From NCBI GenBank assembly GCA_965261545.1, contig CBDHDF010000010.1, positions 128,001 to 192,000 on the forward strand: DNA of 64,000 bases, read 5' to 3'. A program made the position numbers and the translations under genes. The DNA is from Bdellovibrionales bacterium. GTDB lineage: Bacteria > Bdellovibrionota > Bdellovibrionia > Bdellovibrionales > UBA1609. Positions 9,128 through 27,807 of this stretch are shown in pieces. The notes under the pieces were generated by a model. The model ran no database searches and was not told where the DNA came from. It worked only from the letters and a program-made list of their open reading frames with translations. The stretch's first letter is position 1; each line of letters opens with the position of its first letter.

Positions 9128-10372
9128 ATGAGCACGGAAGCTCAAACACTTAAAACGATCAAAAAATGTTTCAAGAAAGTTATTCCTGAAAAGGACTCTC
9201 GGGCAACCATTCCACCTCTTGAGTTTATTGTGGCTCTTGTCTTGTCATTCCAGGGAGACTCTAAGACATATTCAATAGAGGGAATTAGGAGGTTTATGAT
9301 AAGTCATTTAGGATTAAGAATTGAAAGACACAGCTTCTGGGAAAGACTCTCTAGAAAAAGATTAAAAGAGCTTCTGAGTAAACTGGTTGAAATGCTCATG
9401 ATAAAGCTATCTCATGGAGCTTTTCATGGGAGCAAAGCCATATTATTACAACTGGGAGTCTCAGACGTTCTTCTTGTTGACTCAAGCACAATAAGCCTTT
9501 GGGATGGAGCATCTGAGAATTTTCCAGGGACAAGAACAAACGCAGGAATTAAATGGCACGCTTGTTTCAGTTTATTCAGTGGTATAATGACTTGGTTCGA
9601 ATTAACTCCGTCTTCCACTAACGATAGGAAGTGCTTTCCTGATATAAAGGAACTCGTTGGAAAATTAGTCATCTTTGATTTGGGATATTGGGACTATGGC
9701 TTATTGTCATCTATTCATGAAGCTAAAGGATTTTTCTTGTCTAGAGTAAAGTCAAATGCCTCTATTCTTATTGATGCTGTTGTTGAAGGTTTGCCAGATT
9801 ACTATGTTGGAAAAGAGTTCTCTGATATTAAACTCAAGAAAAAAAACGATGTTGTTGAATTTATAGGCAGTGTCTTGTCCAATGGTAAATGGGTAAGTTT
9901 GAGAATTGTAGGCTTCTGGAATTCCTCCGAAAAACGCTATCATTGGTATTGCACGAATTTAGATGTGGCAGCGGAGTCCATATATCCAATTTATCGTTTA
10001 CGTTGGCAATGTGAACTTATTTTCAAATCTTGTAAGAATTCTTTGAATGCAAATCAGATCACCTCAAACGATCAAAATATCATAGAGAGTCTTCTTCTTG
10101 CTTCATTAGCGGCTCACCTCACATCAAGTGTTGTTTTGAGGATAGGAAGAACTAAACTCAATAAGGAACAAAATGACTCCACATCGTTTCAAAGAGTTGC
10201 TAAGGTTACCGTCTTATTAGCCTCTGATTTTATCAAATATCTCCTAAGCTCATCTCAAAAGTATTTAAATATTTTGATAGAGAAGATCAAGATATTCTCC
10301 CATGAAATTTATGACACAAACTACCGACGGCGAAAAACATCAATGAATATGGCTAAAAAGGTCTTGCTATGA
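9128..10372 (+). CDS. IS4-family transposase
   Basis: LVDSS, FDLGY and YRLRWQCELIFK (YREK) motifs. Confidence 0.93.
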   Translation: MSTEAQTLKTIKKCFKKVIPEKDSRATIPPLEFIVALVLSFQGDSKTYSIEGIRRFMISHLGLRIERHSFWERLSRKRLKELLSKLVEMLMIKLSHGAFHGSKAILLQLGVSDVLLVDSSTISLWDGASENFPGTRTNAGIKWHACFSLFSGIMTWFELTPSSTNDRKCFPDIKELVGKLVIFDLGYWDYGLLSSIHEAKGFFLSRVKSNASILIDAVVEGLPDYYVGKEFSDIKLKKKNDVVEFIGSVLSNGKWVSLRIVGFWNSSEKRYHWYCTNLDVAAESIYPIYRLRWQCELIFKSCKNSLNANQITSNDQNIIESLLLASLAAHLTSSVVLRIGRTKLNKEQNDSTSFQRVAKVTVLLASDFIKYLLSSSQKYLNILIEKIKIFSHEIYDTNYRRRKTSMNMAKKVLL

Positions 10373-12166: not shown

Positions 12167-12182
12167 TGGCATGATTTATGCT
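12167..12182 (+). promoter_or_regulatory. Sigma54 (-24/-12) promoter
   Basis: TGGCATGATTTATGCT fits GG-N10-GC and is close to TGGCACG-N4-TTGCW. It lies upstream of an NtrC-type gene. Confidence 0.65.
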
Positions 12183-12193
12183 TATAAAAATCT

Positions 12194-12331
12194 ATGAAAG
12201 CATTTTTTAATTTACATCATTTGAACTTACATCATAAAGGCTCATATATTTTTAGGTCTATATTAGAAACCACATCTTTTGATTTACTCCCCATCATAGC
12301 CTCTAAATATTACAGGAAAGAAAAGAACTAA
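12194..12331 (+). CDS. Possible leaderless 45-aa peptide
   Basis: MKAFFNLHHLNLHHKGSYIFRSILETTSFDLLPIIASKYYRKEKN*. The ATG falls at about +2 of the predicted sigma54 start. Confidence 0.3.
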   Translation: MKAFFNLHHLNLHHKGSYIFRSILETTSFDLLPIIASKYYRKEKN

Positions 12332-13508
12332 GAAGAATTAAGAAGAATTAAGAAGAATTAAGAATAAGGTGTCACGCCCACCTATATATGAAAGTCTATA
12401 AAAGACATGTTCATAACATGAAAGACATGCTCATATAGTTCATATAGATATATAGGTCGTATAAAGGGCTGTAGGCAATAGATTCGATTCTACAATAGTG
12501 GGAGGTATCAATCAATGAACTATAAAATTCTTATCGCCGATGACCAAGAATCTGTTCTTGATAATTTTCGAGAAATGTTCAAGAACCATTTGGACATTGA
12601 GCCCACCCTGACCCAACAATCCTTGGATGCCTTAAAGCTTATCCAAGAAAACCCCTATGATTATGCCGTTGTTGTTCTGGACTATCATTTTGAAGGTCAA
12701 AAACTCAATGGAGCGCAGGTGGCTCAAGAGATTCTTAAGATCAACCCCAAGCTGATTGTTCTTATTTGCACAGGGGACATGGGTCGAGAAGCTCCTATTT
12801 CTTGTCTCAAGGCCGGAGTGAGTGACTTCATTCAAAAAGACGAACCCCTTGATAAGATTATTGCTAGAATTAGATCCAATTTTAGGAAGTTTGATGAACT
12901 CTCACGAGTGGTGACAAGCAAATCCACCCAATATCAGTCCCACCAAAAAGAATTTGAAGAGGCATCTCTGATTTCAAAATTGGGTATGGTCGGTTGCTCT
13001 GCATCTATGGCTTCAGTGGCACAAAAGGTCTTGACCTTGAGTAAAAATGGAGGGGATAAATCGACAATACTTATTCGTTGTTAGGCGCCAATTAAAATTG
13101 GCCATTTTTAGAAGCCGTCGCCAATGAAAAACGGCCAGTTGATGATGTACTGATTTAGTTATTCTTCGTTCAGAGTTTAGTCAAGTGTCTTTATTTTGCT
13201 CATCATTTAACTCGGACTATGCCACAAGATTCTGAGGAATGATTTTCTGCCCACCACTTTTGGCATGACCCCAAATGCATCCTTCAGCCCTATGGCAGAG
13301 GTAAATGGAGTATTTTTCAGGATTCCTTGGCGCAGCTAATGTCTAAAGCTCCGCGAGAGTGACGAGCAAATAGTACGGTAAAAGCCAGTTATCCATAAAT
13401 TTATCCATGGCGACACTGCGGCTGTGACCCCGATGTCTAGCAACGCAGTGCTGCTGTGGATAAATTTTGTGGATAACTGGCGAGTTCCTTCCCCAAAAGT
13501 GGGGATCT

Positions 13509-14291
13509 CTAATGAACTTCTTTGGTTGAACTTTCCTCTTTGCTCTGTTTAGACTTGGCTTTTGCCGATTCGGTTCTCCAACTTTCTTTTCCTTCAATGT
13601 TGAGGGTTTCACAGTTGTGAATAATTCGATCAACAGCAGCAGCGGTGGTAATAGGGTTAAGAAACACCTTATCCCATTCAGAGTAAGTTAAGTTTGTAGT
13701 GATCATGAGACTTTTCCTTTCATATCGCTGAGATATGAATTGAAAGAAAAGATCAGCACCCTCTGTGCAGGAAGCTGTATAGCCAAGTTCATCACAAGCA
13801 ATAAGATCAAAACGGTCTAATTTCTTAAAAAGAGCATTCAATGAGAGTTCTTTCTTGCTTTCACGCATTGTTTCAATAAGTTCATGAGTGGTGACCCATA
13901 AACATCGATAGCCTTGTTCACAGAGTGAACGAACTAGGGACATGGCCAAATGACTTTTCCCCATTCCAAAGCTTCCGTAAAACACAACATTACAGGCTTT
14001 TCTGACCCACTCTCCCTCTGCCATCCAATTAATTTGCTGAGCTGTCACTCCCGTTCTTTTCTGGAAGTTATAAGTTTGGAGTGATTTAAGTTGAGGAAGC
14101 TTGGCCCCCTTAAGCAATCTTTTCACTCTCTGGGAATGCTTGTCAGCAAGCTCATTTTGAACGAGTATACCTAAATACTGTTCATACGTCTTTTTTGTTT
14201 TTTCGGCAACTCTAGCCGTTGCAACATATTCATCCGCCATCGCTGGAAGTCGGAGTTTTTTAAGAGAACCTATAAGTTCTTCGTGATTCAT
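13509..14291 (-). CDS. istB: IstB ATP-binding helper protein
   Basis: GSFGMGKS, ACDELGY, ITTNL...W and AVDRIIH. Confidence 0.93.
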   Translation of the reverse strand: MNHEELIGSLKKLRLPAMADEYVATARVAEKTKKTYEQYLGILVQNELADKHSQRVKRLLKGAKLPQLKSLQTYNFQKRTGVTAQQINWMAEGEWVRKACNVVFYGSFGMGKSHLAMSLVRSLCEQGYRCLWVTTHELIETMRESKKELSLNALFKKLDRFDLIACDELGYTASCTEGADLFFQFISQRYERKSLMITTNLTYSEWDKVFLNPITTAAAVDRIIHNCETLNIEGKESWRTESAKAKSKQSKEESSTKEVH

Positions 14292-15757
14292 TAAGAACCT
14301 CCTATGTTTGGAACAAGACTGTCATATTGAGACAATCTAGGTTGAAGTGGTTTTTGTTGGTCATTCAAATTAATTTTGGTGGGATTGCCTAAGAGCAAAT
14401 CTTTTATGGATTTAAAGTCGAAAATCTCACGACTTTCTAATTGAAGCTCCATGGCTGTAGATAAGTCCTGCCAACTCACATGCTGAATCAAGTTGATAAC
14501 TCTTAAATATTCATGCTCGGCACGGCTTGAATCTTGTTGCTTGAGGTATTGATAAAAATTTTCAAACACATTTGTTGGAAAAAGAATGGATCGGTGAGCC
14601 CATCTTACCATGGCTTGCGGCTTACGAACTAAAGAGGGAAGGATATGTTCAAGAAGAAGACTATGCTCCCCATCAGGTTTTCTTTGATGGCGAGCGACAA
14701 TTTCTTGCTTCCCTCCTGCACGATAGATCGTGACATGATAGGGACCCTGTACGGTTTTACAGGGAGATTGGATCACCTCATCAGGTATGGAATATGTGGT
14801 TTTACCTATTCTCAAAGTCCCATAACCATTACTTTGACAAATATTCACCTTACAGAGAATATCTTCATCTCGTGGAGGCAAAGGCTTAAGAACTTTGGCC
14901 TCCTCCTCAAAGCGAGATTTGGTGGAGTCACTCTGATGCTGATCCATATAAGACTCTAAAAACTGATTCAAATGATCCCAGTCTTTAAAAACAATTCCTT
15001 TGTTTCTAACAATATTTTTTATCCGAGAACTGAAGGTTCGAATATCACGCTCCACATCTCCCTTGTCAGAGCCCTTCCCTGCGCGGCAGGGAAGAACCTT
15101 AAATCCATAGTATTGGATGGCTCGATCAAAAGATTGGGTGTAAATTCGCTGATTTCCTTTAAGAACTTTCTTCACACAGGGAGATAAATTATCAATACGG
15201 ATGTTCGCACTCATCCCACCTATCTTTTCAAAAAAAGCATGCACCCCATCGATGAAACACTCATAGACAAGAAAGGGGTAGGCACGAACCCAACAGGTGC
15301 CACTACAAGGCAATGTTCCAAAATGGAGATGAACGATCTGAACACCATCGGCAAATGGTAAAGCAACCTTCTCCTTAAAATCAAACTGAGCCTGTTCTCC
15401 AGGATCATATCTTTGGCTGAAAAAACGCTCCTTGGGGCGAGAACCAAGAATCTCACAAACTCTTCTCTGAACCGTTCTCTCACTCCCACGATAACCCTCC
15501 TCAACTAATAGCTCATATATTTCACGGGCGGTGTTACTTGGGTTCAACTTCAAAAAGTACTTCACCCGATCCATATATCCATTAAGGGGATCTGGGCGAG
15601 TTCTTTTGGACCTCGCCTTGTACTTCGGTGGGGTGTTGGACTCACAGTACTTGCGCACCGTCTTACGATTGATCCCTAATTCACGAGATATTTCTGTCTT
15701 ATTTTTACCACTGTGACTCAGGTCACGAATGCGGCCGAAAGTGTATTGACTAATCAT
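14291..15757 (-). CDS. istA: IstA transposase
   Basis: HTH (ISRELGINRKTVRKY), PGEQAQFDF, IDN and KGDVE. Start placed at MISQY after GAGGAGG. Confidence 0.92.
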   Translation of the reverse strand: MISQYTFGRIRDLSHSGKNKTEISRELGINRKTVRKYCESNTPPKYKARSKRTRPDPLNGYMDRVKYFLKLNPSNTAREIYELLVEEGYRGSERTVQRRVCEILGSRPKERFFSQRYDPGEQAQFDFKEKVALPFADGVQIVHLHFGTLPCSGTCWVRAYPFLVYECFIDGVHAFFEKIGGMSANIRIDNLSPCVKKVLKGNQRIYTQSFDRAIQYYGFKVLPCRAGKGSDKGDVERDIRTFSSRIKNIVRNKGIVFKDWDHLNQFLESYMDQHQSDSTKSRFEEEAKVLKPLPPRDEDILCKVNICQSNGYGTLRIGKTTYSIPDEVIQSPCKTVQGPYHVTIYRAGGKQEIVARHQRKPDGEHSLLLEHILPSLVRKPQAMVRWAHRSILFPTNVFENFYQYLKQQDSSRAEHEYLRVINLIQHVSWQDLSTAMELQLESREIFDFKSIKDLLLGNPTKINLNDQQKPLQPRLSQYDSLVPNIGGS

Positions 15758-15882
15758 AAGATCCTCCTCATTGCTAACCTTTTGAGTTGCAAAAGGGAGG
15801 GACTCTGTGAGCTTAGTATCTATATCAGAAGAAGAGACTTCATTGTCTAGTATTTGAACACTCCCTGAAGATTGGTCACTTT

Positions 15883-16257
15883 TCATTGGCGACAACCTCC
15901 ATATTGAAAGTGGGACATTTTAATTGGCGACGGCTTTAAGGGAAGCCTGTCTTCAAAAAGAAATTCCATGAAAATTGAGGCAAATGTTGGAATCTTGTGG
16001 AATTTAAATACTTTAGAAAATGGGCACAGCCTAAACAGGCTTTTCTTGACTATATATTTAACCTCATTGAAATCCAGAAACAGTCTACAAATGAGAAATA
16101 TGGAACCTGAATAGGCTGTCATGGAAGGACTCTCCAACACGGAGCCCCTTTCCAGGTCGACAAGAACCCAAAAGGAGTTCTTATCAGCTCGGAGCCTTTT
16201 TATGAGTAATATCAATTGATTATATGCGTCTCGGTTGACAATGCCAAAAATCACCAT
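15883..16257 (-). CDS. Hypothetical passenger ORF inside the IS21 left end
   Basis: 124-aa ORF with a GAGGAGG RBS, lying between terminal repeat copies. Confidence 0.5.
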   Translation of the reverse strand: MVIFGIVNRDAYNQLILLIKRLRADKNSFWVLVDLERGSVLESPSMTAYSGSIFLICRLFLDFNEVKYIVKKSLFRLCPFSKVFKFHKIPTFASIFMEFLFEDRLPLKPSPIKMSHFQYGGCRQ

Positions 16258-17192
16258 AGGTCCTCCTCTGAAAAGTGGCCACTTTTCATTGGCGACGGTG
16301 GGGCATTTTAATTGTCAGCTAACATTCGTGGTGAGTCGGGAACAGGAAAAGAGCTTGTTGCAAGAGCCATTCATGAAAACTCATCTCGAAAGGCAAAGCT
16401 TCGCATTGATATCAATTGTGCTTCTATTCCAGAGGGTCTTTTAGAATCAGAGTTTTTTGGCCATGAAAAGGGAGCCTTTACGGGAGCGGATAAAAAGCGA
16501 CTTGGTAAGTTTCAGGTGGCCACAGGTGGTACAATTTTTCTTGATGAAATTGGTGAAATGCCCAAAGAACTTCAGGCTAAACTTCTTCGAGTCTTACAAG
16601 AAAAAACCATTGAACCCATTGGCTCCAACTCTCCCATACCTGTGGACGTTCGAGTGATTGCCGCAACACATGTGAACCTTGAGGAAAAGGTTGAATCTGG
16701 GGAATTTAGGGAAGACCTCTTTTATCGACTGAACCAAATACCCCTCTTTATTCCCTCCCTAAGAGAGCGTCCCGAAGACGTTGCCCCCTTGGTCACCCAC
16801 TTTATGGACAAGCACTCTGGGAGAGAAAAGAAAAAACTCATGTATAAGACCTTGCAATACTTAAAATCTTACCAGTGGAATGGCAATATTCGTGAACTCG
16901 AAAACACCATCAAGCAATTGGTTGTTTTAACCCCCAGTGATGAGATTCGTCCAGAGCATCTTGATGCTAAGATATTTGAAGCCAACAGCAGGGCGGCCAC
17001 AATGTCGTATCCAGAGTTTAAAAATATTGTGAATAAAAAAGTCGAAGAGGAAGAAAAAGAATTTCTTGTCTCAAGAATAAGAGCTTATCCCTCCTTAAGA
17101 GCTGCGGCAAAGGCTCTGTCTATACCAAAAACCTCACTCCAGAGAAAACTCTCTGAATGGGGATATTCTTCAAAGGGCGAGGGGGTGTTGGT

Positions 17193-18275
17193 ATGAGTTT
17201 CTTAAAAACAATGGAAGACTATCTACTCAAAAAGGTTATAAAGCATATTGGAGGCCAAAAAAGCATGGCCATTCAACTGGATATTACAAATGCTTGCAAC
17301 CTTAAATGTTCCCACTGTTACCATTCCCATCATAAAAATACGGGAGCTTTAAACCTTGAAGGCTGGCTTGAGATTCTTGACCAGTACGACAAGATGCTTC
17401 AAACTCTCAAGCTACAGCCCTATATTGTGATTTGCGGCGGGGAGCCCACATTAAGTCCCTATCTTTTTTCTATTCTAAAAAGAGCCAATGAGCTTTGGGA
17501 AAGTCCCACCATTACAATTCTTACCAATGGTACAAAGCTTACAGACAAACTACTGTCTTCCCTCAGTGAGTACAATATGCGGTTTCAGGTCTCTCTAGAC
17601 GGTCCTGATGCTAAGAGGCATGATGCTCTTCGTGGTAAAGGGAATTTCCAAAAGGCACTGGAGGGAGCCAAACGGGCCAAGCAGTACGGCATTGAGACAA
17701 ATATTCTAAGTATTTTATCAAAGAAGACCTCCCATTGGATTCCAGAGTTCTTTCAAATGGTCAAAGAAAACGACCTTAACTCTATGGGCTTTACACGATT
17801 TATTCCACAGGGTTTTGGCGCAGAGCTTGTCGAAACTGGGGGAGATGATTCCTTGTATGGTTTTGAACTCAGGGATGCCATGAAGTCCATCATTTATTTT
17901 TCAAAGAAATCTGGGGTGCGAACTTCAACAGACCACCCCTTATATCACCTTATTGACCCCAAGCTTGGTCATAATGGCCGCTTTGGATTCCAAGGACTTG
18001 TAGTGGACTACAAAGGTAACTTGAAGGTTTCTAGCAGAGCCAATTACATACTTGGAAATGTACTCGGCGAAGGTCTGCAAAATTTGTTCTTACACCATCC
18101 TTTAATGAAGGATTTGAGAAACTCCCAAAAGATCAATGGATGTGGTGATTGTATGTATTATGCACGATGTGGTGGAGATAGAAATATAAGCTATGCCACA
18201 ACGGGAAGTTTTTTAGAAAAAGACAAAGGATGTTGGATTCATCCAAGAACTATCAAGAAAGGAGTTGTCGCATGA
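17193..18275 (+). CDS. Radical SAM/SPASM-domain protein (candidate peptide maturase)
   Basis: [20 protein letters not shown] and C-terminal CGDC-x5-CGGD...KGC. ATGA overlap with the upstream stop. Confidence 0.92.
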
Positions 18276-18643
18276 AAAAAATAACAAGGAAAATAAAAAG
18301 AAGAAGCTTATTATTTCTTCTGTCTTTAGTGCCCATACAGTCTCTTGCTTTTGCTGTGGATTTTTCTTCAAAATTAGGAAAGAACAGAGAATCTCTAGGC
18401 AATCATAATTATGAAGAAGAGATGGTAAATCGTTTGTTGGAAGGAAGTATGCCTGAAAAATATTATGATCTTATGGATAAGCATCATGTGAAGCATCCCG
18501 AAGATTTATATCTTAATGAATTTCAGTCACAGAGAATCCTCTTAAAAAGAGAATTTATCAATGATCTCTATGCTTCCAATGAAACAGAAGATGGAATTGA
18601 TAAAGAAACAAGTGGAGCTATGAGTGACTTTCTGTGGCCATAA
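18272..18643 (+). CDS. Secreted 123-aa protein, candidate precursor peptide
   Basis: AAGGAG RBS and ATGA overlap; basic n-region, hydrophobic h-region and AFA cleavage site; acidic region, then C-terminal TSGAMSDFLWP. Confidence 0.75.
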   Translation: MKKITRKIKRRSLLFLLSLVPIQSLAFAVDFSSKLGKNRESLGNHNYEEEMVNRLLEGSMPEKYYDLMDKHHVKHPEDLYLNEFQSQRILLKREFINDLYASNETEDGIDKETSGAMSDFLWP

Positions 18644-18676
18644 TTCATGGACGAAACAGTTTGAGAGTCTTGTAAA

Positions 18677-20197
18677 ATGAATAAATTTATAATTTTTTTT
18701 ATTATATCAATGAGTATCTTCAGCTACCATTGGATATGGAAAGGAGAGGGTAACGAGATGATCTTAAAAGTAGGATATCCAGATGGGTGGAATGATCTCA
18801 CGCCCACACTTCAACATACAGGACATGCGGACTCTATTTTGCATAACGCTTTTGAGCCATTGGTCATCCTCGGGAAAAATGAAATTATTCAACCTATGGC
18901 CGCAAAATCATGGTCTATCGATCCTCAAAAAAGAGTATTTACATTTGAAATTGATACCAAAAGAAAGTTTTCTAATGGAACTCCACTTTCTGCACAACAT
19001 TTCAAAGATTCATGGGAGTATAGCCTCAAAGTGACACCTAAGTCTTCTAATAACAGCTTGCTTGATGTCCTTTACAAGATGGATGGTTTTGAAAATCATG
19101 AGAAAACAGGAAATATCTCTGGAATTGAGGTTCTTAACGAGAGTACTTTAAGAGTTACTTTTAAGAAATCTTTTCGTATGGCCCTTAGTCATTTGTCTGG
19201 ATCAAGAATGTCTTCTTTCCTCCGAGAGGGCGAAAATTTTCTAGGAACCGGTCCTTATGTTATCAATGAAATAAGTGAGAAGGAAATCATGTTGATAAAA
19301 AATGAATACTTTTTGGACTCTGTTCCTTTTGACAAAGTAAGCATTAAGATTGTCCCTCCTGATGTGGCTCAAGAATCTCTAGATCGTGGCGATATTGATT
19401 TTTATGCCTTCGCCAAGGGCTCTCTTGATCTTTGCCGTGAGGAGTTTTTAGAGTGCAGTGCGGGATCTGAAAATCGCCATGCTGTGATTATCGTCAATGG
19501 TCAAGAGGGACGTATTTTTAGCAATCCACAGCATCGGAAAGCCCTTCAATACCTTTTCTTAGATGGCTTTACATTGGAAGATATGCCCAAGGAAAGTCGT
19601 TCTGGAATCCAGTTAGACCCTCAAATATTCTTACCATTCCAATCGGGGCGCATAACAGAGTCAAAAGCCAAGGAGATTATTCAGCAAGGCCAAACATATG
19701 TTGAGAACTTTATCAAGGCCACCCAAGAACAACCACTTTATTTTGCCCTCCATAAGAGAGGGAGATGGCTCCAAGAATACCTCGGAAAGAAGGGAGTTCA
19801 ATTTTCTAAGAAATCAGAAAGTGACCATGAGGAACAATTTAGAAAAATGTACCATAAAACCTACGAACCAGATATCATCCCTAGGGCCTTAAGCGTTTTT
19901 AATGGTGACCCCGATGGAATATATCATGCTCTTGGTGAAAAAGGGGCTATCAGTTCTCCCATGATTCATCGTAAAACTATTTCATCACTCCTTGAAGAGG
20001 GCCGCAAAATACTTGATTTTGATAAATTGGCTCCACACTACGAAAAGGTGGCTGAAGCAGCCTTGCAAGAAGTTCCTTTTATCCATATAGGATTCTTGCA
20101 CGACATTATGATTTTAAAAAAAGACCGAGTGAAGCTTAATGGAAAATACGTCAATCGTGAAGATGGACGCTTTACAAACTACCAGCCAGTGGAATAA
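18677..20197 (+). CDS. Family-5 (OppA/DppA-like) solute-binding protein, orphan
   Basis: FEPLV...PMAAKSW, FSNGTPLSAQHFKDSW and GTGPY motifs; N-terminal TM anchor. No permease or ATPase genes nearby. Confidence 0.88.
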   Translation: MNKFIIFFIISMSIFSYHWIWKGEGNEMILKVGYPDGWNDLTPTLQHTGHADSILHNAFEPLVILGKNEIIQPMAAKSWSIDPQKRVFTFEIDTKRKFSNGTPLSAQHFKDSWEYSLKVTPKSSNNSLLDVLYKMDGFENHEKTGNISGIEVLNESTLRVTFKKSFRMALSHLSGSRMSSFLREGENFLGTGPYVINEISEKEIMLIKNEYFLDSVPFDKVSIKIVPPDVAQESLDRGDIDFYAFAKGSLDLCREEFLECSAGSENRHAVIIVNGQEGRIFSNPQHRKALQYLFLDGFTLEDMPKESRSGIQLDPQIFLPFQSGRITESKAKEIIQQGQTYVENFIKATQEQPLYFALHKRGRWLQEYLGKKGVQFSKKSESDHEEQFRKMYHKTYEPDIIPRALSVFNGDPDGIYHALGEKGAISSPMIHRKTISSLLEEGRKILDFDKLAPHYEKVAEAALQEVPFIHIGFLHDIMILKKDRVKLNGKYVNREDGRFTNYQPVE

Positions 20198-20199
20198 TC

Positions 20200-21894
20200 A
20201 TGAAGAAAATGATCTTAAAGAAAATAACCTTGAACAAGTGGCTTCTTAGAAACACAAAAATGCCATTGCTCATCCTAGGGGTGATGGTCGCCCTTGCTCA
20301 AGTATGTTTTGTGGCTTATACCCACAATAGATCAAAAGAAACACAAACAAAATCCATCAAAAAGCTTGTCGCCACGGTCATCCAAATTGGAATACATCAA
20401 AAAAACCGCCCTCTCTTAGAATCATCCTTTCAACTGGCCATGGAAGAACTTGGCGTAAGGTCCATGATTTTTTGCGAGGGCACAAGAAAAATATTCCACC
20501 AACCCTTTGGGTTTGGAAATTGCCCCCATAATCTCAAGGAAGGATTTTTTGAATCTGTGATTGAAGTCAATCCCTCTGGATTTAAAGATCATCATTTCTA
20601 TTTTTATGTGGATCGTTTTCACATTGGCCCCTCTCTCATCGCACTGAATGTCATTATCTTAGTATTTTTGTCTATTGTTTTTATTATCATCTATAGGATA
20701 CAAAAACATCTTTCAAAAGATATATTTTTGCCTCTAGAAAGTCACTTGTCTGGAGGAGATGAGATTTATATTGAAGAGCTTGATGCCATTAGAAATAAAT
20801 TTGAAGAATATCGAAAATCCAAAGAGAAGCAAGCTGTGGCGGGGGCCATTATTGAGTACAATATGAGCATTAATCACAACATCAAGTCAATGAAACAGAC
20901 TCTTGATGTGATTATGTCAGGTGAGTTTTCTTCGGAAAGGCAAAAGCAGAGATTTAACCAAGTTTCCAATGATTTTAAGAGGCTTATGGCCAAAATTGCC
21001 GACCAGATACCAGATAGAAATAAAGTAAGCCTTATCACCTCAGACAAAACATTCTTTGAGTACCTTGAAAAGGAGAATGAGAAGACAACAAAGGTATGTG
21101 CCGTTGATGCCTTTGAAATTGCTTGCGAACATAAAAAAATCGAAAAGAAATCTTCTAAAAATGATCTTCGTATTGAAATATCTTACGATGATGAGGTAAA
21201 AAAACTGTATATTGAAGCCGTCGATCCTGAGTTGAGGGGTATTTTTTCAAACTTGATGAACAACTCTATTGAATCTGGAGCCACTCATATTGAGATCAAT
21301 CTACGAAAAGAAGAGACCGACCTTGTAGCAACAATTTTTGATAACGGGAAAGGAATCCCTCAAGACATCAAGGAAAATATATTTCAGCGAGGTTTTAGTT
21401 GGGAAAAAGAAGGTGGAACAGGCTATGGACTCTACCACGCTCAAAGATTTATAAGGTCATGGCATGGAGAGTTTCATCTTCTAGAGAGCAAGAAGGGACG
21501 AACAGAGTTTGAAATCAAACTTCCCATATGGAGCCCCTCCTCCATGGATATTGATTCAGCAGGCCATATCGTGATTTTAGATGACGAAGATTCCGTTCAT
21601 GACCAATGGTTGGAAAAGATGAACTCGATCAATCCAGAAGCCAAGGTTCTTTCTTTTAAAAAGCCCCATGAGTTTCAAGATTGGTTTAACGAAAATGAAA
21701 TCTTCTCCCATTATATCTTCTTTTTTGACAGTGACCTGGGGGAGCATGAAGAAAATGGAGAGCATTTAATAAATGAAATGGGTCTTAACCACATCTCCTA
21801 CCTTGTCACCAACAACTATAATAATCCAAATCTGACAAAATGGTGTGATGAAAGGGCCATTCAAGTCATTCCCAAGGGCTACTTGCTGGGTTAA
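20200..21894 (+). CDS. Membrane sensor histidine kinase with a C-terminal receiver-like domain
   Basis: Two TM segments, H-box-like NHNIKS, N box NLMNNS, DNGKGI, GTGYGL and ILDDE...FDSDLG. Confidence 0.9.
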   Translation: MKKMILKKITLNKWLLRNTKMPLLILGVMVALAQVCFVAYTHNRSKETQTKSIKKLVATVIQIGIHQKNRPLLESSFQLAMEELGVRSMIFCEGTRKIFHQPFGFGNCPHNLKEGFFESVIEVNPSGFKDHHFYFYVDRFHIGPSLIALNVIILVFLSIVFIIIYRIQKHLSKDIFLPLESHLSGGDEIYIEELDAIRNKFEEYRKSKEKQAVAGAIIEYNMSINHNIKSMKQTLDVIMSGEFSSERQKQRFNQVSNDFKRLMAKIADQIPDRNKVSLITSDKTFFEYLEKENEKTTKVCAVDAFEIACEHKKIEKKSSKNDLRIEISYDDEVKKLYIEAVDPELRGIFSNLMNNSIESGATHIEINLRKEETDLVATIFDNGKGIPQDIKENIFQRGFSWEKEGGTGYGLYHAQRFIRSWHGEFHLLESKKGRTEFEIKLPIWSPSSMDIDSAGHIVILDDEDSVHDQWLEKMNSINPEAKVLSFKKPHEFQDWFNENEIFSHYIFFFDSDLGEHEENGEHLINEMGLNHISYLVTNNYNNPNLTKWCDERAIQVIPKGYLLG

Positions 21895-22096: not shown

Positions 22097-25069
22097 GTGA
22101 TGAAAATAAAGAACCTAAATCCGAGAAACAAGGGATATTTTGCAGTATGCCAGATCATGTCCCCATGGACTGTATTTTCCTGCTTGTTATTTCTTTTGTT
22201 TTCTACGGCATTGGTTGTACAGGCACAAGGTAGAGTGGCCAGTGACAAGGGCATGAATAAAGACGTGGACATGGGAGCGAACAGGGGAATTGGCAAGGGT
22301 GGCAACAAGAATTCTCTGGCTTTGAAAGCCGAAGCATTAGAGCGACAAAGCAAGCCACCTTCAGACAACAAGTCGCCCTTAGACACTGCAAAAAAGTCCG
22401 TGGTTTTACCTAAGCCTTCCCTTCCCCCCAACAAGGTTCTTCAAAATAAAAAAAATAAAGATATGGAGAAGATTAAAATCACTGGCTCACGCATTCAGCG
22501 CATAAACATGGAGGGTTCTTCACCCACCATTGTTTTAAGTCGAGAGGATATGGAGAAAACAGGCTATAATTCCATTGCTGATATTCTGCGTGATATGACG
22601 GTGAGTTCCTTTGGGTCGCTACGTGAGTCTCCTGGCAGCACTTCATCGGGTGTAGCTCTCATCAATCTAAGAGGTCTTGGGGCTGATAGAACTCTTGTTT
22701 TGATGGATGGGAAGAGGGTGCAAAGAGACCCTCTTAAAAATGCCGTGGACCTAAACCTCATTTCTTTGGCTGCGGTGGAGAGAATCGAAATTTTAAAAGA
22801 CAGTGCCTCAGCCATTTATGGGTCTGAAGCCCTTGGAGGTGTTGTTAATATTATCACCCGGAAAAACTTTAGTGGCCATGAAGCCTCAGTGAAACAACTT
22901 ATCAGTGAAGGCTCTGGCGGAAATCAGACCGAGGTGGGCCTAACCTCTGGAGCTTCTTCTGGGCGATGGAGTGCCACGGGAATCTTGCACCATAGAAGCA
23001 ATGAAGCCATTTATGATATTGACCGCAAGTACTCTCGGTTAAGATTGAGTCCCTTAAGCTCTCCTGCAACATTTCGAGTTTTAAAATCAGACAAAAAAAC
23101 CTCCTACACAGAAGCGGACGGAAAAACACTTGCGTTTCGCTCTCGCCCACAGGCGTCCCCAAGTTGCCCCACGGATAGAGTTGCCAGAGGATATGGGGGA
23201 ACTGTTTGCCAAGCCAATTATGCAAGCCATCTCACAAACCGCCCTAGCTTGGAGCAAACCAGTGCTATGCTCAACACAAACTTTCAAGTTAGAGATGACG
23301 TGAACACCTTCTTTCGCCTCCATGGTGCCTTCCGAAATGTTCAATGGGCCTATTCCCCCACTCCCATTGGTTCTTTTTCAGGACATGGCATTTCGGGGAG
23401 ACAAGCCAAAATATACGCCATGGAAGACCCCCAGCTAAAGAAAATTTTTGAAGGTTTGAGAGATGATGATTTTGTAGAGGTGAACAGCCGCCTCATGGAG
23501 CTAGGAGACCGTCAATCGGATATTACCACCCACCAATATGGTACATTGGCAGGGGTGACATTGGAAAAGGGAGATACTTGGGAGATCGAAATTTCTGCTG
23601 GCTACAACCAGAGTTTTACCAAGAATGTGGGAGCCAATGGATATGCTCGCTCTCATGAAGTTCAACAACGACTTGATACAACAGGCTTCAATCCATTTGC
23701 CTCTCCAGGAACAAGGGGAGACCTTTCAGAGTTAAATTATCAGACTTGGACCACGTCCATGACAAGCTTGATTTTGGCTGAAGTTTCGGCCACGGGAGAT
23801 ATTTTTCAAATGCCATCGGGTCCCGTGGGGTTGGCCATTGGAACTCAAGCCCACAGGGAAGCTTTTCGTATAGACTCCGATGAAGCCACTAAAAATGATG
23901 AAATCATAGGAGCTGCTGGAGGAAAACTTGACGGGTCTCGTAATGTTGTGTCTGGCTATATGGAGCTATCACTTCCCTTGCTGCCAAGTGTGGAGTGGAG
24001 CCTCTCAAGCCGCTATGATGCTTATTCTGATTTTGGTCAAGCCTTTAGTCCTAAGACAAATATTCGTTGGCAGGTATCTCCCAAAGTCATGGTTCGCTCA
24101 TCCATAGGAAGAGGTTTTAAAGCACCCAACATGGATGATCTCTATAAAGAAGGTTCCCATGGCTTTCAAACTTTTATAGATCATGTGCTTTGCCAAAAAA
24201 GTGGTGGCAGTAGTGGAGGTGGTGGAAGCAATAGAAGTGGGGGAGGTGGCAGCAGTAGCGGAAGTGCTTGCCGCCCTCACCAGTGGAAGGTCATAAGCCA
24301 TGGCAATACCAACCTTAAGGAGGAAAGGTCTTTATCTGCAAGCCTTGGGGCCTTTGTGGAGCTTACCCATGGCATCGAGTTTGGCATTGATGGTTGGTAC
24401 TTGAAGTTAGAAAACGAGGTGGGGCTTCAGTTTGACGATATGACAATGGCTGAACATCGTTTTGGGTCCCAATATCTTCAAGGTTTTGGCATTCATGTGG
24501 AGCGTGACCCATCCACAGGCCAAATCAAAAAAGTCATAGCTCCCCACCAAAATCTTTCAAAAAGAGAGTTGAGTGGGGTCGATCTTGTTACAGAAGTTTT
24601 TAAAAGCACGAAGTGGGGTGATATTGCTCTTGCAGTCCAACACTCCCATTTGCTTTACAACAAAACTGTTGGCTTTTCTGGCTTAGAGAAACAAGATACA
24701 TTGGGTCACTATGGCTTGCCTCCATGGAGAAATGTTGTTTCCCTGACATATTCTCCAAGCCACTCAACGGGAATTCGTATGAGAGGGTCAAGCGACCATC
24801 AAACGGGAACATTGGTAGCAAGAACCGTGGCCCCTCATCAAAAGCGTAGCTCCAAGGCTGGCAATCACAAGCAATATACAGAGCTAGACCTTCAATACAC
24901 ATATAACGGCTTATGGGGAGGCTCTGGCAGCATCTCCATGGGAATTCGCAACATATTGGCAACCACGCCCCCCGTGGATGACAGCAACCCAAGCCTCCCC
25001 CAAATGCACTCGTCTTTGTACGACGGAAATGGCCGCATGGGATGGCTGCAATATAAGTATTTGTTTTAG
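22097..25069 (+). CDS. TonB-dependent receptor
   Basis: EKIKITGSRI TonB box, NLRGLG..RTLVL.DG, ERIEILKD.ASAIYGSEALGGVVNII and a terminal F. Confidence 0.93.
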   Translation: MMKIKNLNPRNKGYFAVCQIMSPWTVFSCLLFLLFSTALVVQAQGRVASDKGMNKDVDMGANRGIGKGGNKNSLALKAEALERQSKPPSDNKSPLDTAKKSVVLPKPSLPPNKVLQNKKNKDMEKIKITGSRIQRINMEGSSPTIVLSREDMEKTGYNSIADILRDMTVSSFGSLRESPGSTSSGVALINLRGLGADRTLVLMDGKRVQRDPLKNAVDLNLISLAAVERIEILKDSASAIYGSEALGGVVNIITRKNFSGHEASVKQLISEGSGGNQTEVGLTSGASSGRWSATGILHHRSNEAIYDIDRKYSRLRLSPLSSPATFRVLKSDKKTSYTEADGKTLAFRSRPQASPSCPTDRVARGYGGTVCQANYASHLTNRPSLEQTSAMLNTNFQVRDDVNTFFRLHGAFRNVQWAYSPTPIGSFSGHGISGRQAKIYAMEDPQLKKIFEGLRDDDFVEVNSRLMELGDRQSDITTHQYGTLAGVTLEKGDTWEIEISAGYNQSFTKNVGANGYARSHEVQQRLDTTGFNPFASPGTRGDLSELNYQTWTTSMTSLILAEVSATGDIFQMPSGPVGLAIGTQAHREAFRIDSDEATKNDEIIGAAGGKLDGSRNVVSGYMELSLPLLPSVEWSLSSRYDAYSDFGQAFSPKTNIRWQVSPKVMVRSSIGRGFKAPNMDDLYKEGSHGFQTFIDHVLCQKSGGSSGGGGSNRSGGGGSSSGSACRPHQWKVISHGNTNLKEERSLSASLGAFVELTHGIEFGIDGWYLKLENEVGLQFDDMTMAEHRFGSQYLQGFGIHVERDPSTGQIKKVIAPHQNLSKRELSGVDLVTEVFKSTKWGDIALAVQHSHLLYNKTVGFSGLEKQDTLGHYGLPPWRNVVSLTYSPSHSTGIRMRGSSDHQTGTLVARTVAPHQKRSSKAGNHKQYTELDLQYTYNGLWGGSGSISMGIRNILATTPPVDDSNPSLPQMHSSLYDGNGRMGWLQYKYLF

Positions 25070-25299: not shown

Positions 25300-27807
25300 A
25301 TGGCCAAAAAAAGAATACTTAATTTTCAATTAAAATTATTTTACAGCTATTCTCATGAAGATAAACAGCATAAAAATGATATGGAGAAAGCACTTGCTAT
25401 TCTTAAAAGAGATAAGCTACTCAATGAGTGGTCTGACAAAGAAATTTTACCGGGTCAATTAATTTCTAAGGAAATAAAAAAGAATATGAGAGAAGCAGAT
25501 ATTATTGTATTTCTCTTTAGTCAAAATTTTATCGCTTCTCAAGAATGTATGAACGAGTGGGAAGAGGCAAAAAAAATTTCTCTAGATAAAAAAAAATTTT
25601 TCCGAGTTCCAGTTATTCTATGTGATTGTCCATGGAAAGATATATTAAAAGATGATAACATCAAATCATTACCGAATGATGGGAATCCAGTTGCCAATTT
25701 TTCCAACAAAGAAACTGCATGGAATCAGATTTATGAAGGCATCAAGAATATCATTAACGAACTAAGAAGTGATTTTACTCCTAATGAAAATTTTTTAAAA
25801 GAAATAGAGAAAACTGATTTTTTATCTGAGAGTCAAATTAAATTAAAAAATATTTTTATATTCTTGCCATTGTTGAATTATAGACAAGATCAAGAATATA
25901 GTCAATTAAGAGAAGAAAGAACTACAAGCCAAGGCCGTTTAAGAGAAGAAAGAATTACAAGCCAAGACCAGCTGTTTAATAAAAAGTATACCATCATCCA
26001 TGGCGAAGAGATGAGTGGGAAAACTGCTCTTAGTAGGTATTTATTTCTCTGTTTAGTTGAACAGTTAGTTCCTGTTCTGCATATAAATATGGATGATATA
26101 CCCAAGCAAGTTTTGCAAGTGGATTTTCTAAAAAAAGTATATCAAGATCAATTTAATGGAGACTATGACCTATGGGTGAAAAAAGATAAGAAAGTTCTCA
26201 TATTAGATGATTTACATTGCAAATCAAATATGATTGATTTCGTTATTCAATCAAAAGATATTTTTGATAAAATAATTATAATGGTATCATCAGATATTTT
26301 TAATTCGTTTTTTAAAGATGAATCTCGACTGGCTGATTTCCATCAATTAGAAATCCAACCAATGGGACATCAACAACAAGAAAATTTAATTAAAAAAAGA
26401 TTAAAGTTATCCGATATGAAAGCAGAAGATGGACTTATAGATCAAATAGAAGAACGTGTAAATTCCATAATTATATTTAATAAATTTGTTCCAAGATATC
26501 CATTCTTTGTATTATCTATCCTCCAAACCTATGAAGCGTTTATGCCTAATAACATGTCTATAACTTCTTATGGACATTGCTATAACGCTTTAATTATTTC
26601 GTTCCTTATTAAGTCTGGGGTCCAAGAAAGCGATAAGGATATTAATACGTGTTTTAATTTTCTTGAAAACTTAGCATTTAAAACATACAAAAATAATAAC
26701 AAAATACATTTTGATAATTTTATTCGTGAATATGATAACCAATTTATTATTGCAGATTCAATAATTAATAGGTTAAAAAGCAATGAATATGGAGTTCTTA
26801 ATGAAGAAGGTTCTTTCAAGAAAAAATATATTTATTATTTTTTTCTTGGAAGATTTCTTTCTAAAAATAAAGAATACGAAAAAATAATTGAAAATATGTG
26901 CGAAAAAAGTTATTTAACATCAAACTATTTGACTCTTCTTTTTATTATTCATCATACAGATGATGATAAAATAATAGATGATATTCTTCTTAGAACTATG
27001 TGTACAATAGATTCTGTCGAGCCAGCAACTCTGGATTGCAAAGAAACAAAGAGATTTGACAAAATTCTTAAAACATGTCAAAAAAACATACTTTCCAAAG
27101 GTAGTGTTTCAAGTGAAAGAAGAAGAGAGAGAGAGAATCGAGACATAAGTGACCGATCAGAAATTAAGAACGAAAAAATAGAAGATGACGATCCTTGTAA
27201 TTATATTTATAGGATTTTTAAAAACAATGAAATTATAGGGCAAGTTTTAAGAAACAAATATGGGAGTATGAAAAGAAAGCAAATTGAAGATATAATTGAG
27301 ATAATTGGAGATAGTGGTTTGCGTCTCATTAATATAATTCTCAAAGATAAAGAAGAGATAGACGAAGTTGCATTATGCATTAAAAAGAGGGGGACTGATA
27401 TTAGTGTTAACAAGATAAAGAAAGAACTCCAATTTTTTTCTTTCATATGGGCAATGTTAAATATTGAAAAAATTGTTAGATCTATAAATATTCCTGAGAT
27501 TAAAGAGGCTATAGATCATGTTGTATCCAAAAAATCAACTTCAGCATATGATCTTATTGGATACTTCAACCAACTAGATAGGTCAGAGTCATTTGGGGAG
27601 AGAGAAAAGAAGGCTTTAAGTAGTTTACTCAAAAAACATGATAATAATAATTTTATTAAAAAAGTAATTTCTCTAAGAACACAACACTATATGAATACAC
27701 ATAGAACCAAAGAGCCTATACAACAAGGAGTTTGTTCTTTACTGAATATCAAGTATACCCAAAGGGCCCTCCATCAAATTGAAGAAAAGGTTAGGGAGTG
27801 TCGTTAG
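25300..27807 (+). CDS. TIR domain + STAND-like P-loop NTPase (putative antiphage protein)
   Basis: TIR: FYSYSHED...ADIIVFLFS..FIASQECMNEW. Walker A GEEMSGKT, Walker B VLILDD. Very AT-rich. Confidence 0.8.
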   Translation: MAKKRILNFQLKLFYSYSHEDKQHKNDMEKALAILKRDKLLNEWSDKEILPGQLISKEIKKNMREADIIVFLFSQNFIASQECMNEWEEAKKISLDKKKFFRVPVILCDCPWKDILKDDNIKSLPNDGNPVANFSNKETAWNQIYEGIKNIINELRSDFTPNENFLKEIEKTDFLSESQIKLKNIFIFLPLLNYRQDQEYSQLREERTTSQGRLREERITSQDQLFNKKYTIIHGEEMSGKTALSRYLFLCLVEQLVPVLHINMDDIPKQVLQVDFLKKVYQDQFNGDYDLWVKKDKKVLILDDLHCKSNMIDFVIQSKDIFDKIIIMVSSDIFNSFFKDESRLADFHQLEIQPMGHQQQENLIKKRLKLSDMKAEDGLIDQIEERVNSIIIFNKFVPRYPFFVLSILQTYEAFMPNNMSITSYGHCYNALIISFLIKSGVQESDKDINTCFNFLENLAFKTYKNNNKIHFDNFIREYDNQFIIADSIINRLKSNEYGVLNEEGSFKKKYIYYFFLGRFLSKNKEYEKIIENMCEKSYLTSNYLTLLFIIHHTDDDKIIDDILLRTMCTIDSVEPATLDCKETKRFDKILKTCQKNILSKGSVSSERRRERENRDISDRSEIKNEKIEDDDPCNYIYRIFKNNEIIGQVLRNKYGSMKRKQIEDIIEIIGDSGLRLINIILKDKEEIDEVALCIKKRGTDISVNKIKKELQFFSFIWAMLNIEKIVRSINIPEIKEAIDHVVSKKSTSAYDLIGYFNQLDRSESFGEREKKALSSLLKKHDNNNFIKKVISLRTQHYMNTHRTKEPIQQGVCSLLNIKYTQRALHQIEEKVRECR

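Follow-up and report, generated by a model that had tools for sequence, protein, structure and literature searches.

The 123-residue protein encoded at positions 18272..18643 of the window (the whole 64,000-nucleotide stretch of Bdellovibrionales DNA analysed here) is proposed to be the precursor of a serine-modified, signal-peptide-exported peptide in an autoregulated signalling circuit of four or five genes in Bdellovibrionota, a reading to which a probability of roughly 0.55 is given. Synteny, a disordered tail on a folded body and a structural model of the complex make it very likely that the protein is a substrate of the radical SAM enzyme (rSAM) encoded directly before it. The original prediction had described the same frame as a candidate rSAM substrate with a Sec-type signal, a body of about 75 residues, an acidic stretch and the C-terminus TSGAMSDFLWP, and all of these are present; it missed the circuit of solute-binding protein (SBP), histidine kinase (HK) and sigma54 regulator that gives the frame its meaning. 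The features are collected in Table 1.

Table 1. Features of the cassette in the window, with the evidence or remark belonging to each
Feature	Position	Strand	Evidence or remark
Sigma54 (-24/-12)-type promoter site TGGCA-N7-TGC	12167..12181	+	Upstream of operon; putative function
NtrC-type response regulator, 5' part (receiver)	12515..13078	+	Pfam Response_reg; cut by IS21
IS21-family element (istA/istB)	13079..16324	-	IstB_IS21, rve; 5-bp target duplication TTCGT
Response regulator, 3' part (sigma54 AAA+ domain, HTH)	16325..17196	+	Sigma54_activat E=3.7e-65
Radical SAM enzyme, 360 aa	17193..18275	+	Pfam, homologue alignment
Ribosome-binding site AGGAG of precursor gene	18260..18264	+	Sequence
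Precursor gene, 123 aa	18272..18643	+	ORF translation, profile of relatives
Signal peptide, residues 1-28	18272..18355	+	Register [KR][KR]..L..L...P..[SA][VI][SA]FA
Folded helical body, residues 45-107	18404..18592	+	AlphaFold2
Acidic linker NETEDGIDKE, residues 103-112	18578..18607	+	Specific to this copy
Disordered C-terminal core T113-P123, motif SGAMS	18608..18640	+	Conservation, AlphaFold2, complex model
Family-5 (peptide/nickel-type) SBP	18677..20197	+	SBP_bac_5 E=4.3e-30; no permease genes in cassette
Two-transmembrane histidine kinase	20200..21894	+	HATPase_c E=5.7e-18

Gene order, regulation and the in-genome swap

In Bdellovibrionota the rSAM gene lies in a conserved cassette with the order (sigma54 response regulator), rSAM, small ORF, family-5 SBP, HK, which in the window are all on one strand. 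Seventy-five loci of the family were gathered, 11 of which end too early, leaving 64 that are informative; a small leader-bearing ORF stands behind the rSAM gene in 62 of these (duplicates included), and an SBP follows in 52 of the 54 loci with at least 500 nt downstream. The named relatives are Bdellovibrionota MAGs. Among sampled genomes, 16 of 401 from the phylum and 23 of 384 from the order carry the rSAM; the two sets overlap and contain the genome analysed here. From metagenomes, 80 loci were obtained; analysis was confined to the 36 with identities of about 39% and above, the remaining 44 having 26-31%. Apart from an alternative short regulator in three, the 37 longer loci have no further gene family in common, be it a transporter, a protease or another, which bears out the lack of an exporter remarked on in the original prediction. 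No description of the cassette was found in a literature search that left most subscription journals outside; large rSAM-RiPP mining tables could list it. The family-5 SBP is the probable receptor. The HK has hydrophobic segments at residues 21 and 146, and its C-terminal receiver-like domain is weakly matched (cREC_REC, E=0.01).

The pattern TGG[CT]A-N7-TGC, which we take to be the sigma54 consensus, was found upstream of the regulator in 13 of the 26 regulator-adjacent loci, against a background of 0.022 per 700 nt, and in 2 of the 49 other loci. Of the 13 misses, ten have fewer than 90 nt upstream and one a broken regulator; the other two, L034 and L069, are true misses, with a full-length regulator and no match. 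RpoN is encoded in the genome. A sigma54 activator under a sigma54 promoter would give positive feedback. Between the site and the regulator start of the window, a 10-mer occurs in three tandem copies (12330-12359).

The genome holds two more copies of the cassette, an intact one on contig C11 and one on C2 in which the rSAM gene is split by another IS. The regulator of the window is interrupted by the IS21 element, and its 5' part is 98-99% identical to the intact copies on C11 and C2, which could act in trans for the window copy. The element does not count as a member of the cassette and is possibly polar. Since an adjacent regulator is absent in 49 of the 75 loci, many of them short, it is regarded as optional. 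The same IS21 element also precedes the C2 copy (L006 448-2052), and at G000:C2:221392-222126 there is a further copy of the regulator, partial and broken.

In pherotypes, precursor and sensor change together as a specificity module. A comparable pattern emerges when the window is compared with the copy on C11. At the DNA level the two are 86-100% identical up to position 18273 and 56-79% after it, and the protein identities are 99% for the response regulator, 92% for the rSAM, 42% for the precursor, 57% for the SBP and 65% for the HK, the last three being near the between-species level. That the break is no artefact of assembly is shown by a short-read contig of the other type, which departs from the window sequence at 18293; a contig from a public run (one sample, maybe the source sample) spans 17731-20200 with 0 letters differing. 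In this one pair, then, precursor, SBP and HK appear to be exchanged jointly while the enzyme and the regulator change little.

The swap bears on a different reading, in which the small protein is no rSAM substrate at all and serves unmodified as a periplasmic ligand or accessory of the SBP and HK, the rSAM making a small-molecule signal. The ORF indeed co-segregates with SBP and HK and not with the rSAM; in two loci on short contigs (L084 1472-2876 and L087 548-2134) the rSAM gene stands directly before the SBP gene and the ORF is missing; and the best NCBIfam matches of the enzyme include the small-molecule enzymes AhbD and NirJ, far below the cut-off. This reading is nonetheless considered quite improbable, as the precursor gene is translationally coupled to the rSAM gene (its start overlaps the rSAM stop as ATGA), the position of a serine is fixed within a disordered tail and persists where the bodies are unrelated or absent, and the model of the complex described below passes with that serine in the active site.

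The precursor family and its tail serine

A profile built from the relatives of the ORF, which were gathered through gene context and a profile, matched 56 proteins at E<=0.001, including a 796-aa repeat protein that is unrelated; because of these matches and the recurrence of a small ORF behind the rSAM gene, the frame is not regarded as a chance one. Pfam and NCBIfam hold no family for the 123-aa protein, a single-sequence homologue search (four candidates) returned the ORF itself as the sole match, the ESM Atlas gave no usable match, and for RNA no holder was listed. Scans of the precursor alignments with Pfam yielded weak, scattered matches; similarity to Coq4 appears in 3 of the 21 scanned (L005 6079-6450, L001 4027-4365 and L002 7113-7466; best E=3e-4). 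For the comparisons below, 52 complete precursors were kept, 6 broken and 4 contig-cut ones being left out, and 44 remained after removal of those at least 80% alike.

The signal of the window protein has seven K/R in residues 1-11, a hydrophobic stretch at 13-20, Pro21 and the end SLAFA|V. Residues 1-28 were assigned to the Sec/SPI type by hand rules (n/h/c-region, AxA-type site), by which the precursor family, too, is predicted to be Sec/SPI-exported. The register is family-wide: Pro occurs in 44 of 44, where it was used as the anchor, Ala at +7 in 38 of 44, and the whole motif in 28 of 44 against 0 of 133 other signal-like N-termini selected with a crude filter. The signal sequence is thus more constrained than expected, with fixed spacing of the basic pair, Leu, Pro and FA. 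This fixed register suggests that the signal peptide may double as an enzyme-recognition leader; the confident interface of the model includes none of residues 1-27 by name, which gives no evidence either way. It had been held that a Sec signal on an rSAM substrate would be unusual; on RiPP precursors such a signal is rare but known, bufferins being an example (PMC11626156).

The stretch KRRSLL resembles a Tat motif, and TatC is encoded in the genome. Such a motif is found in 4 of the 44 precursors, the window protein among them, and across the precursors K outnumbers R at both twin positions (19 K/18 R and 28 K/11 R). Tat was rejected as the family-wide export route on account of these K-rich positions, and may serve the clade of the window protein.

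Three kinds of middle part follow the signal: a helical body as in the window, a winged-helix-like body, or none, the body-less precursors having 49-62 residues and making up 11 of the 44. In the window protein the body comprises residues 29-102 (74 aa), and AlphaFold2 gives pLDDT 91-96 across residues 51-100 and models the tail as disordered. A fold search with this model returned nothing at E<=0.001 (best Z 4.6). The model of the second long type resembles winged helices of a generic kind (best Z 6.9, rmsd 3.0, 68 aligned), its search listing these only and PqqD not among them; neither search points to a new fold. When the profiles of the two long types are compared, the alignment is confined to the first 27 residues, and the signal peptide is therefore the sole part common to them. 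Body type clusters on the rSAM tree, with 7 changes against 21.4 when shuffled (quick tree, 43 rows), though kin share labels on such a tree and relatedness alone can yield this clustering. The acidic spacer taken up in the original prediction exists in this copy and is not a conserved trait: a spacer with net acidic charge of at least 3 occurs in 6 of 73 precursors, and it was rejected as a family feature.

The tails are Gly/Ser-rich, and a serine lies within the last 10 residues in 43 of the 44 precursors, against 21.3 expected from body windows. The same holds for 39 of 40 further profile matches (17.4 from body windows), these 40 being what remains of the 56 after removal of 9 fragments, chimeras, duplicates and unrelated proteins and 7 already counted. 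In 14 of the 16 winged-helix-type precursors this serine falls in the same alignment column, and in the other 2 it is one column off. The residues after it vary, and the chain ends 2-8 residues later in 72 of 73. A shared core of the form small-small-x-[LIMP]-Ser, SGAMS in the window copy, was recognised; the patterns were framed after viewing the first 15 sequences, and of the 29 precursors held out, 17 then proved to contain [SGA]xx[LIMP]S, where shuffling gave 4.1. It is weaker in the 40 further matches (13 against 6.3), and the short precursors show no enrichment (2 of 11 against 1.4 shuffled). Conservation and the model together make Ser118 (codon 18623-18625) the probable target of the rSAM. 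The suggested comparison of ORFs behind homologous rSAM genes for a C-terminal motif points to the serine core and not to an aromatic tail. Conservation of the body without the tail had been named as the outcome that would speak against the proposal; in this family the bodies differ or are missing and the tail serine stays.

The aromatic residues of DFLWP were the substrate originally envisaged, the rSAM cross-linking them in a cyclophane or streptide-like manner. F120 and W122 are present in the window copy, Trp is commoner in tails than in bodies (2.1% against 0.3%) and lies within the last 6 residues of 11 of the 44 precursors where 0.8 would be expected, and residues 109-123 all contact the enzyme in the model. 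Any W, F or Y is nevertheless present in the tails of only 23 of the 44 precursors and 15 of the 40 further matches, and two aromatics within the last 8 residues are rare (2 of 44 and 3 of 40). Four of the five nearest relatives have tails without aromatics, and the C11 rSAM, 92% identical to that of the window, is paired with a tail that has no Phe. In the model, F120 and W122 fall outside the 25 pairs of least error. AuxI, reported to act as oxidant when SuiB forms its Lys-Trp cross-link (PMC10114670), is missing. Such cross-linking is considered very unlikely, the conserved residue of the tail being Ser118.

The radical SAM enzyme and its modelled complex

The enzyme belongs to the radical SAM superfamily (PF04055, 87 bits against a cut-off of 29.5) and has the GGE motif. 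Its start at 17193 was taken from the alignment of homologues, the longest ORF starting at 17157. At least 400 rSAM sequence clusters were found at E<=1e-60, and the cysteine counts given here refer to the 120 homologues listed. CxxxCxxC is present in all 120. The C-terminus is SPASM-like and holds only four cysteines, C317, C320, C326 and C347, which are kept in 119-120 of 120; the fourth Cys of CxxCx5Cx3C is found in 0 of 120, 111 of 120 have no Cys within 245-290, and SSR replaces the pC of SPASM enzymes in 118 of 120. The auxiliary ligands being incomplete, the enzyme does not fall within the canonical two-cluster rSAM-SPASM group of the anSME, MftC, AhbD and SuiB type.

The second-best structural relative by sequence profile is anSME (PDB 4K36, E=1e-19). 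C255, C261 and C276 of anSME are without a Cys counterpart and C330 aligns to D329; these four we take to be the AuxI ligands. Q64, which presumably faces the substrate, aligns to C81, a residue that precedes GGE and is kept in 118 of 120 homologues. Judged from this alignment, the enzyme is an rSAM without AuxI ligands that retains those of AuxII only. The best 25 of 82 NCBIfam matches are all below the cut-off (top 127 bits against 395) and include TIGR04053, ACGX, AhbD, NirJ, MftC, WgkB, DynA and GeoRSP. No PF05402 match, which would indicate an RRE, was found in the genome (96.8% complete) or in the rSAM enzyme.

The complex of rSAM and precursor, modelled with SAM and two clusters, gave 0.82 against 0.01 for the best control. 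Of pairs with a solved structure 116 of 157 reach the mark that it passes, and of mismatched pairs 2 of 215; these figures are only roughly valid here, and a job bearing ligands falls outside the calibration. Three runs gave 0.04, 0.84 and 0.82, so that one of three failed; the agreement was at least 38% of contacts and the pLDDT of the partner at least 55. The pass may rest on likeness, since rSAM-peptide complexes such as that of anSME have been solved. With these qualifications, the model supports binding of the precursor by the rSAM. The pairs of least error join G115-S118 to A26, Q28, V79, C81, G262-V270, S280 and S281 and would thus place small residues where AuxI would be; S118 touches C81 with an expected error of 1.6 A. 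The body enters the modelled interface with residues 50-61 and 95-103, and the helical body is the probable enzyme-binding leader domain. The leader/core polarity first proposed from the sequence of the protein is supported by the disordered tail on a folded body, the modelled position of the tail in the active site and the synteny.

Conservation and the model both suggest that the rSAM acts at or next to Ser118. Because there is no AuxI to take up an electron and the conserved Cys81 lies beside the serine, the reaction is most likely a redox-neutral one in which Cys81 serves as H-donor. A conserved Cys serves as H-donor in rSAM epimerases (PMC8326336), and C81 fits this description of a conserved non-cluster Cys near the substrate by its conservation and its modelled contact with S118. 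Given that the protein is a substrate, epimerisation of the serine is a fair candidate at somewhat under even odds. Oxidation to formylglycine, known for Ser or Cys in anSME (PMC10114670 and PMC8326336), would be a rather unlikely outcome, backbone cleavage an unlikely one and an ether cross-link through the serine oxygen a doubtful one. Epimerisation would be mass-silent, so the MS/MS of the tail that had been proposed as a check would miss the change.

The putative circuit and its relation to known systems

The proposed sequence of events may be outlined as follows. The rSAM would bind the precursor in the cytoplasm through its folded body, with the core S114-G-A-M-S118 threaded into the barrel as modelled, and would modify it at or next to Ser118. 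The signal peptide would then direct Sec export of the precursor, no exporter being needed. The modified tail, free or still attached, may bind the orphan family-5 SBP, which would switch the HK, and the sigma54 activator would re-induce the operon from the -24/-12 site. Precursor, SBP and HK would change together as the specificity module. If this is correct, a Gram-negative phylum gains an agr/ComX-type modified-peptide circuit built from rSAM, Sec, SBP and sigma54, and with it a candidate RiPP class with a mechanistically odd enzyme, SPASM-like, in which an active-site Cys is combined with ligands for AuxII alone. As one genome carries both natural types of specificity, a comparison of their cross-reactivity would be straightforward.

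Whether the product would act within or between cells was considered separately. In the former case, the modified 95-aa protein would stay in the periplasm and tell the cell's own SBP and HK that the rSAM, which is sensitive to oxygen, is active, as a gauge of anoxia, Fe-S or SAM. Sec delivers to the periplasm only, no protease or outer-membrane exporter recurs in the longer loci, the body is predicted to be a stable fold, and insulation of parallel circuits in one genome could also drive divergence of precursor and SBP. The diversity of tails and the swapped precursor-SBP-HK module would, however, suit kin discrimination better, and precursors without a body exist; a reporter of this kind is held to be unlikely. 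An extension in the other direction, likewise unlikely, is a pheromone system with pherotypes, in which the AuxI-less rSAM would epimerise the single tail serine via Cys81 in a Sec-exported precursor with interchangeable leader domains, and the orphan SBP and HK would read the D-Ser peptide into a sigma54 loop for kin or strain recognition. Predators would then possibly mark occupied prey. Against the signalling circuit as a whole stand the want of a recurrent protease to release the tail, the unexplained crossing of the outer membrane by the product, the two loci lacking a precursor and the IS21-broken regulator of the window.

The design is familiar from the modified-peptide two-component quorum-sensing cassettes of Gram-positive bacteria, namely comQXPA of Bacillus and agrBDCA of staphylococci, and appears unusual for a Gram-negative lineage. 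As in these, genes for a maturase, a precursor, a kinase and a response regulator are co-located, with an autoregulatory-type promoter and, as far as the sequence tells, apparent autoinduction, and precursor and sensor vary jointly, here as a sequence signature in one in-genome pair. Unlike them, the present cassette has an rSAM as maturase in place of a prenyltransferase or the AgrB protease, no AgrB/ComQ homologue being found by Pfam or among the neighbours. It further differs in its Gram-negative phylum, in a signal peptide as the means of export, in the SBP interposed between ligand and kinase, in a sigma54 output, and in a swap of precursor, SBP and HK under a maturase that stays.

The cassette falls outside the canonical two-cluster SPASM, anSME, aromatic cross-linked and bufferin families. 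Bufferins are Sec-exported RiPPs modified on Cys by MNIO enzymes for copper chelation, and share with the window precursor a length of 80-120 aa with a Sec signal, a folded mature part, cytoplasmic modification and the lack of a dedicated exporter (PMC11626156). They are set apart by the rSAM in place of an MNIO and by the sensor genes alongside; no other gene family recurs in the cassette loci, and the mature parts are Cys-poor, with Cys in 3 of 44. Membership in the aromatic cross-linked rSAM RiPPs (streptide, triceptide and darobactin types) is contradicted by the absence of a conserved core aromatic. The substrate motif of anSME/AtsB is [CS]xPxR in a sulfatase; the precursor is without this motif and is not a sulfatase, and the system is not counted among the formylglycine systems. 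The three AuxI-side Cys and C330 are absent and Q64 is replaced by Cys; the likeness to anSME/AtsB (PMC10114670) would consist in an rSAM-SPASM enzyme with no N-terminal RRE match acting on Ser/Cys of a protein substrate.

A conserved non-cluster Cys as candidate H-donor is shared with EpeE and PoyD (PMC8326336), and the long folded leader of PoyA loosely recalls the precursor body. Unlike here, the targets of EpeE and PoyD are Val/Ile in toxins and not Ser in a signal, and C223 of EpeE and C372 of PoyD lie elsewhere in the chain than C81, any likeness being one of putative role. Streptococcal rSAM RiPPs are under Rgg/SHP control and have dedicated exporters; they differ from the window system in having neither signal peptide nor SBP-HK pair. 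StrB/SuiB of streptide and TqqB are likewise rSAM-SPASM enzymes of RiPPs tied to quorum sensing, TqqB using a side-chain hydroxyl (PMC10114670); they keep their auxiliary clusters, form -2 Da cross-links and act on short precursors, unlike the window system.

Several variants of the cassette were noted. One member is broken by an IS, a frameshift or a stop in many of them (the window, L006, L003/L004, L036, L039, L040, L048, L053, L055, L057, L092 and L095), and in L003/L004 the IS takes away exactly the tail after the body; these breaks could reflect loss of signalling or, in part, assembly error. In L070 (810-2251) the rSAM gene is followed by a short leader-bearing ORF with a Cys-containing tail and by a transporter-like ORF replacing the SBP, the kinase being upstream. 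An extra SBP-like protein lies near the cassette in L038 (9716-12888) and in L074, with a kinase beside the former, so that the pairing of SBP and HK may be a sensor design of broader use in the phylum. Right behind the kinase of the window, a TonB-dependent receptor with a Gly/Ser-rich insert is encoded at 22097-25069, and a 37-aa remnant follows the C11 kinase; it was rejected as a member of the cassette, as it does not recur in other loci. Farther on, an 835-aa low-GC protein (25300-27807; TIR_2 E=1e-11, weak nSTAND3 match) is possibly anti-phage. The region is IS-rich, with more transposase-like ORFs, recognised by translation only, at 9128-10372 and 28568-30664.
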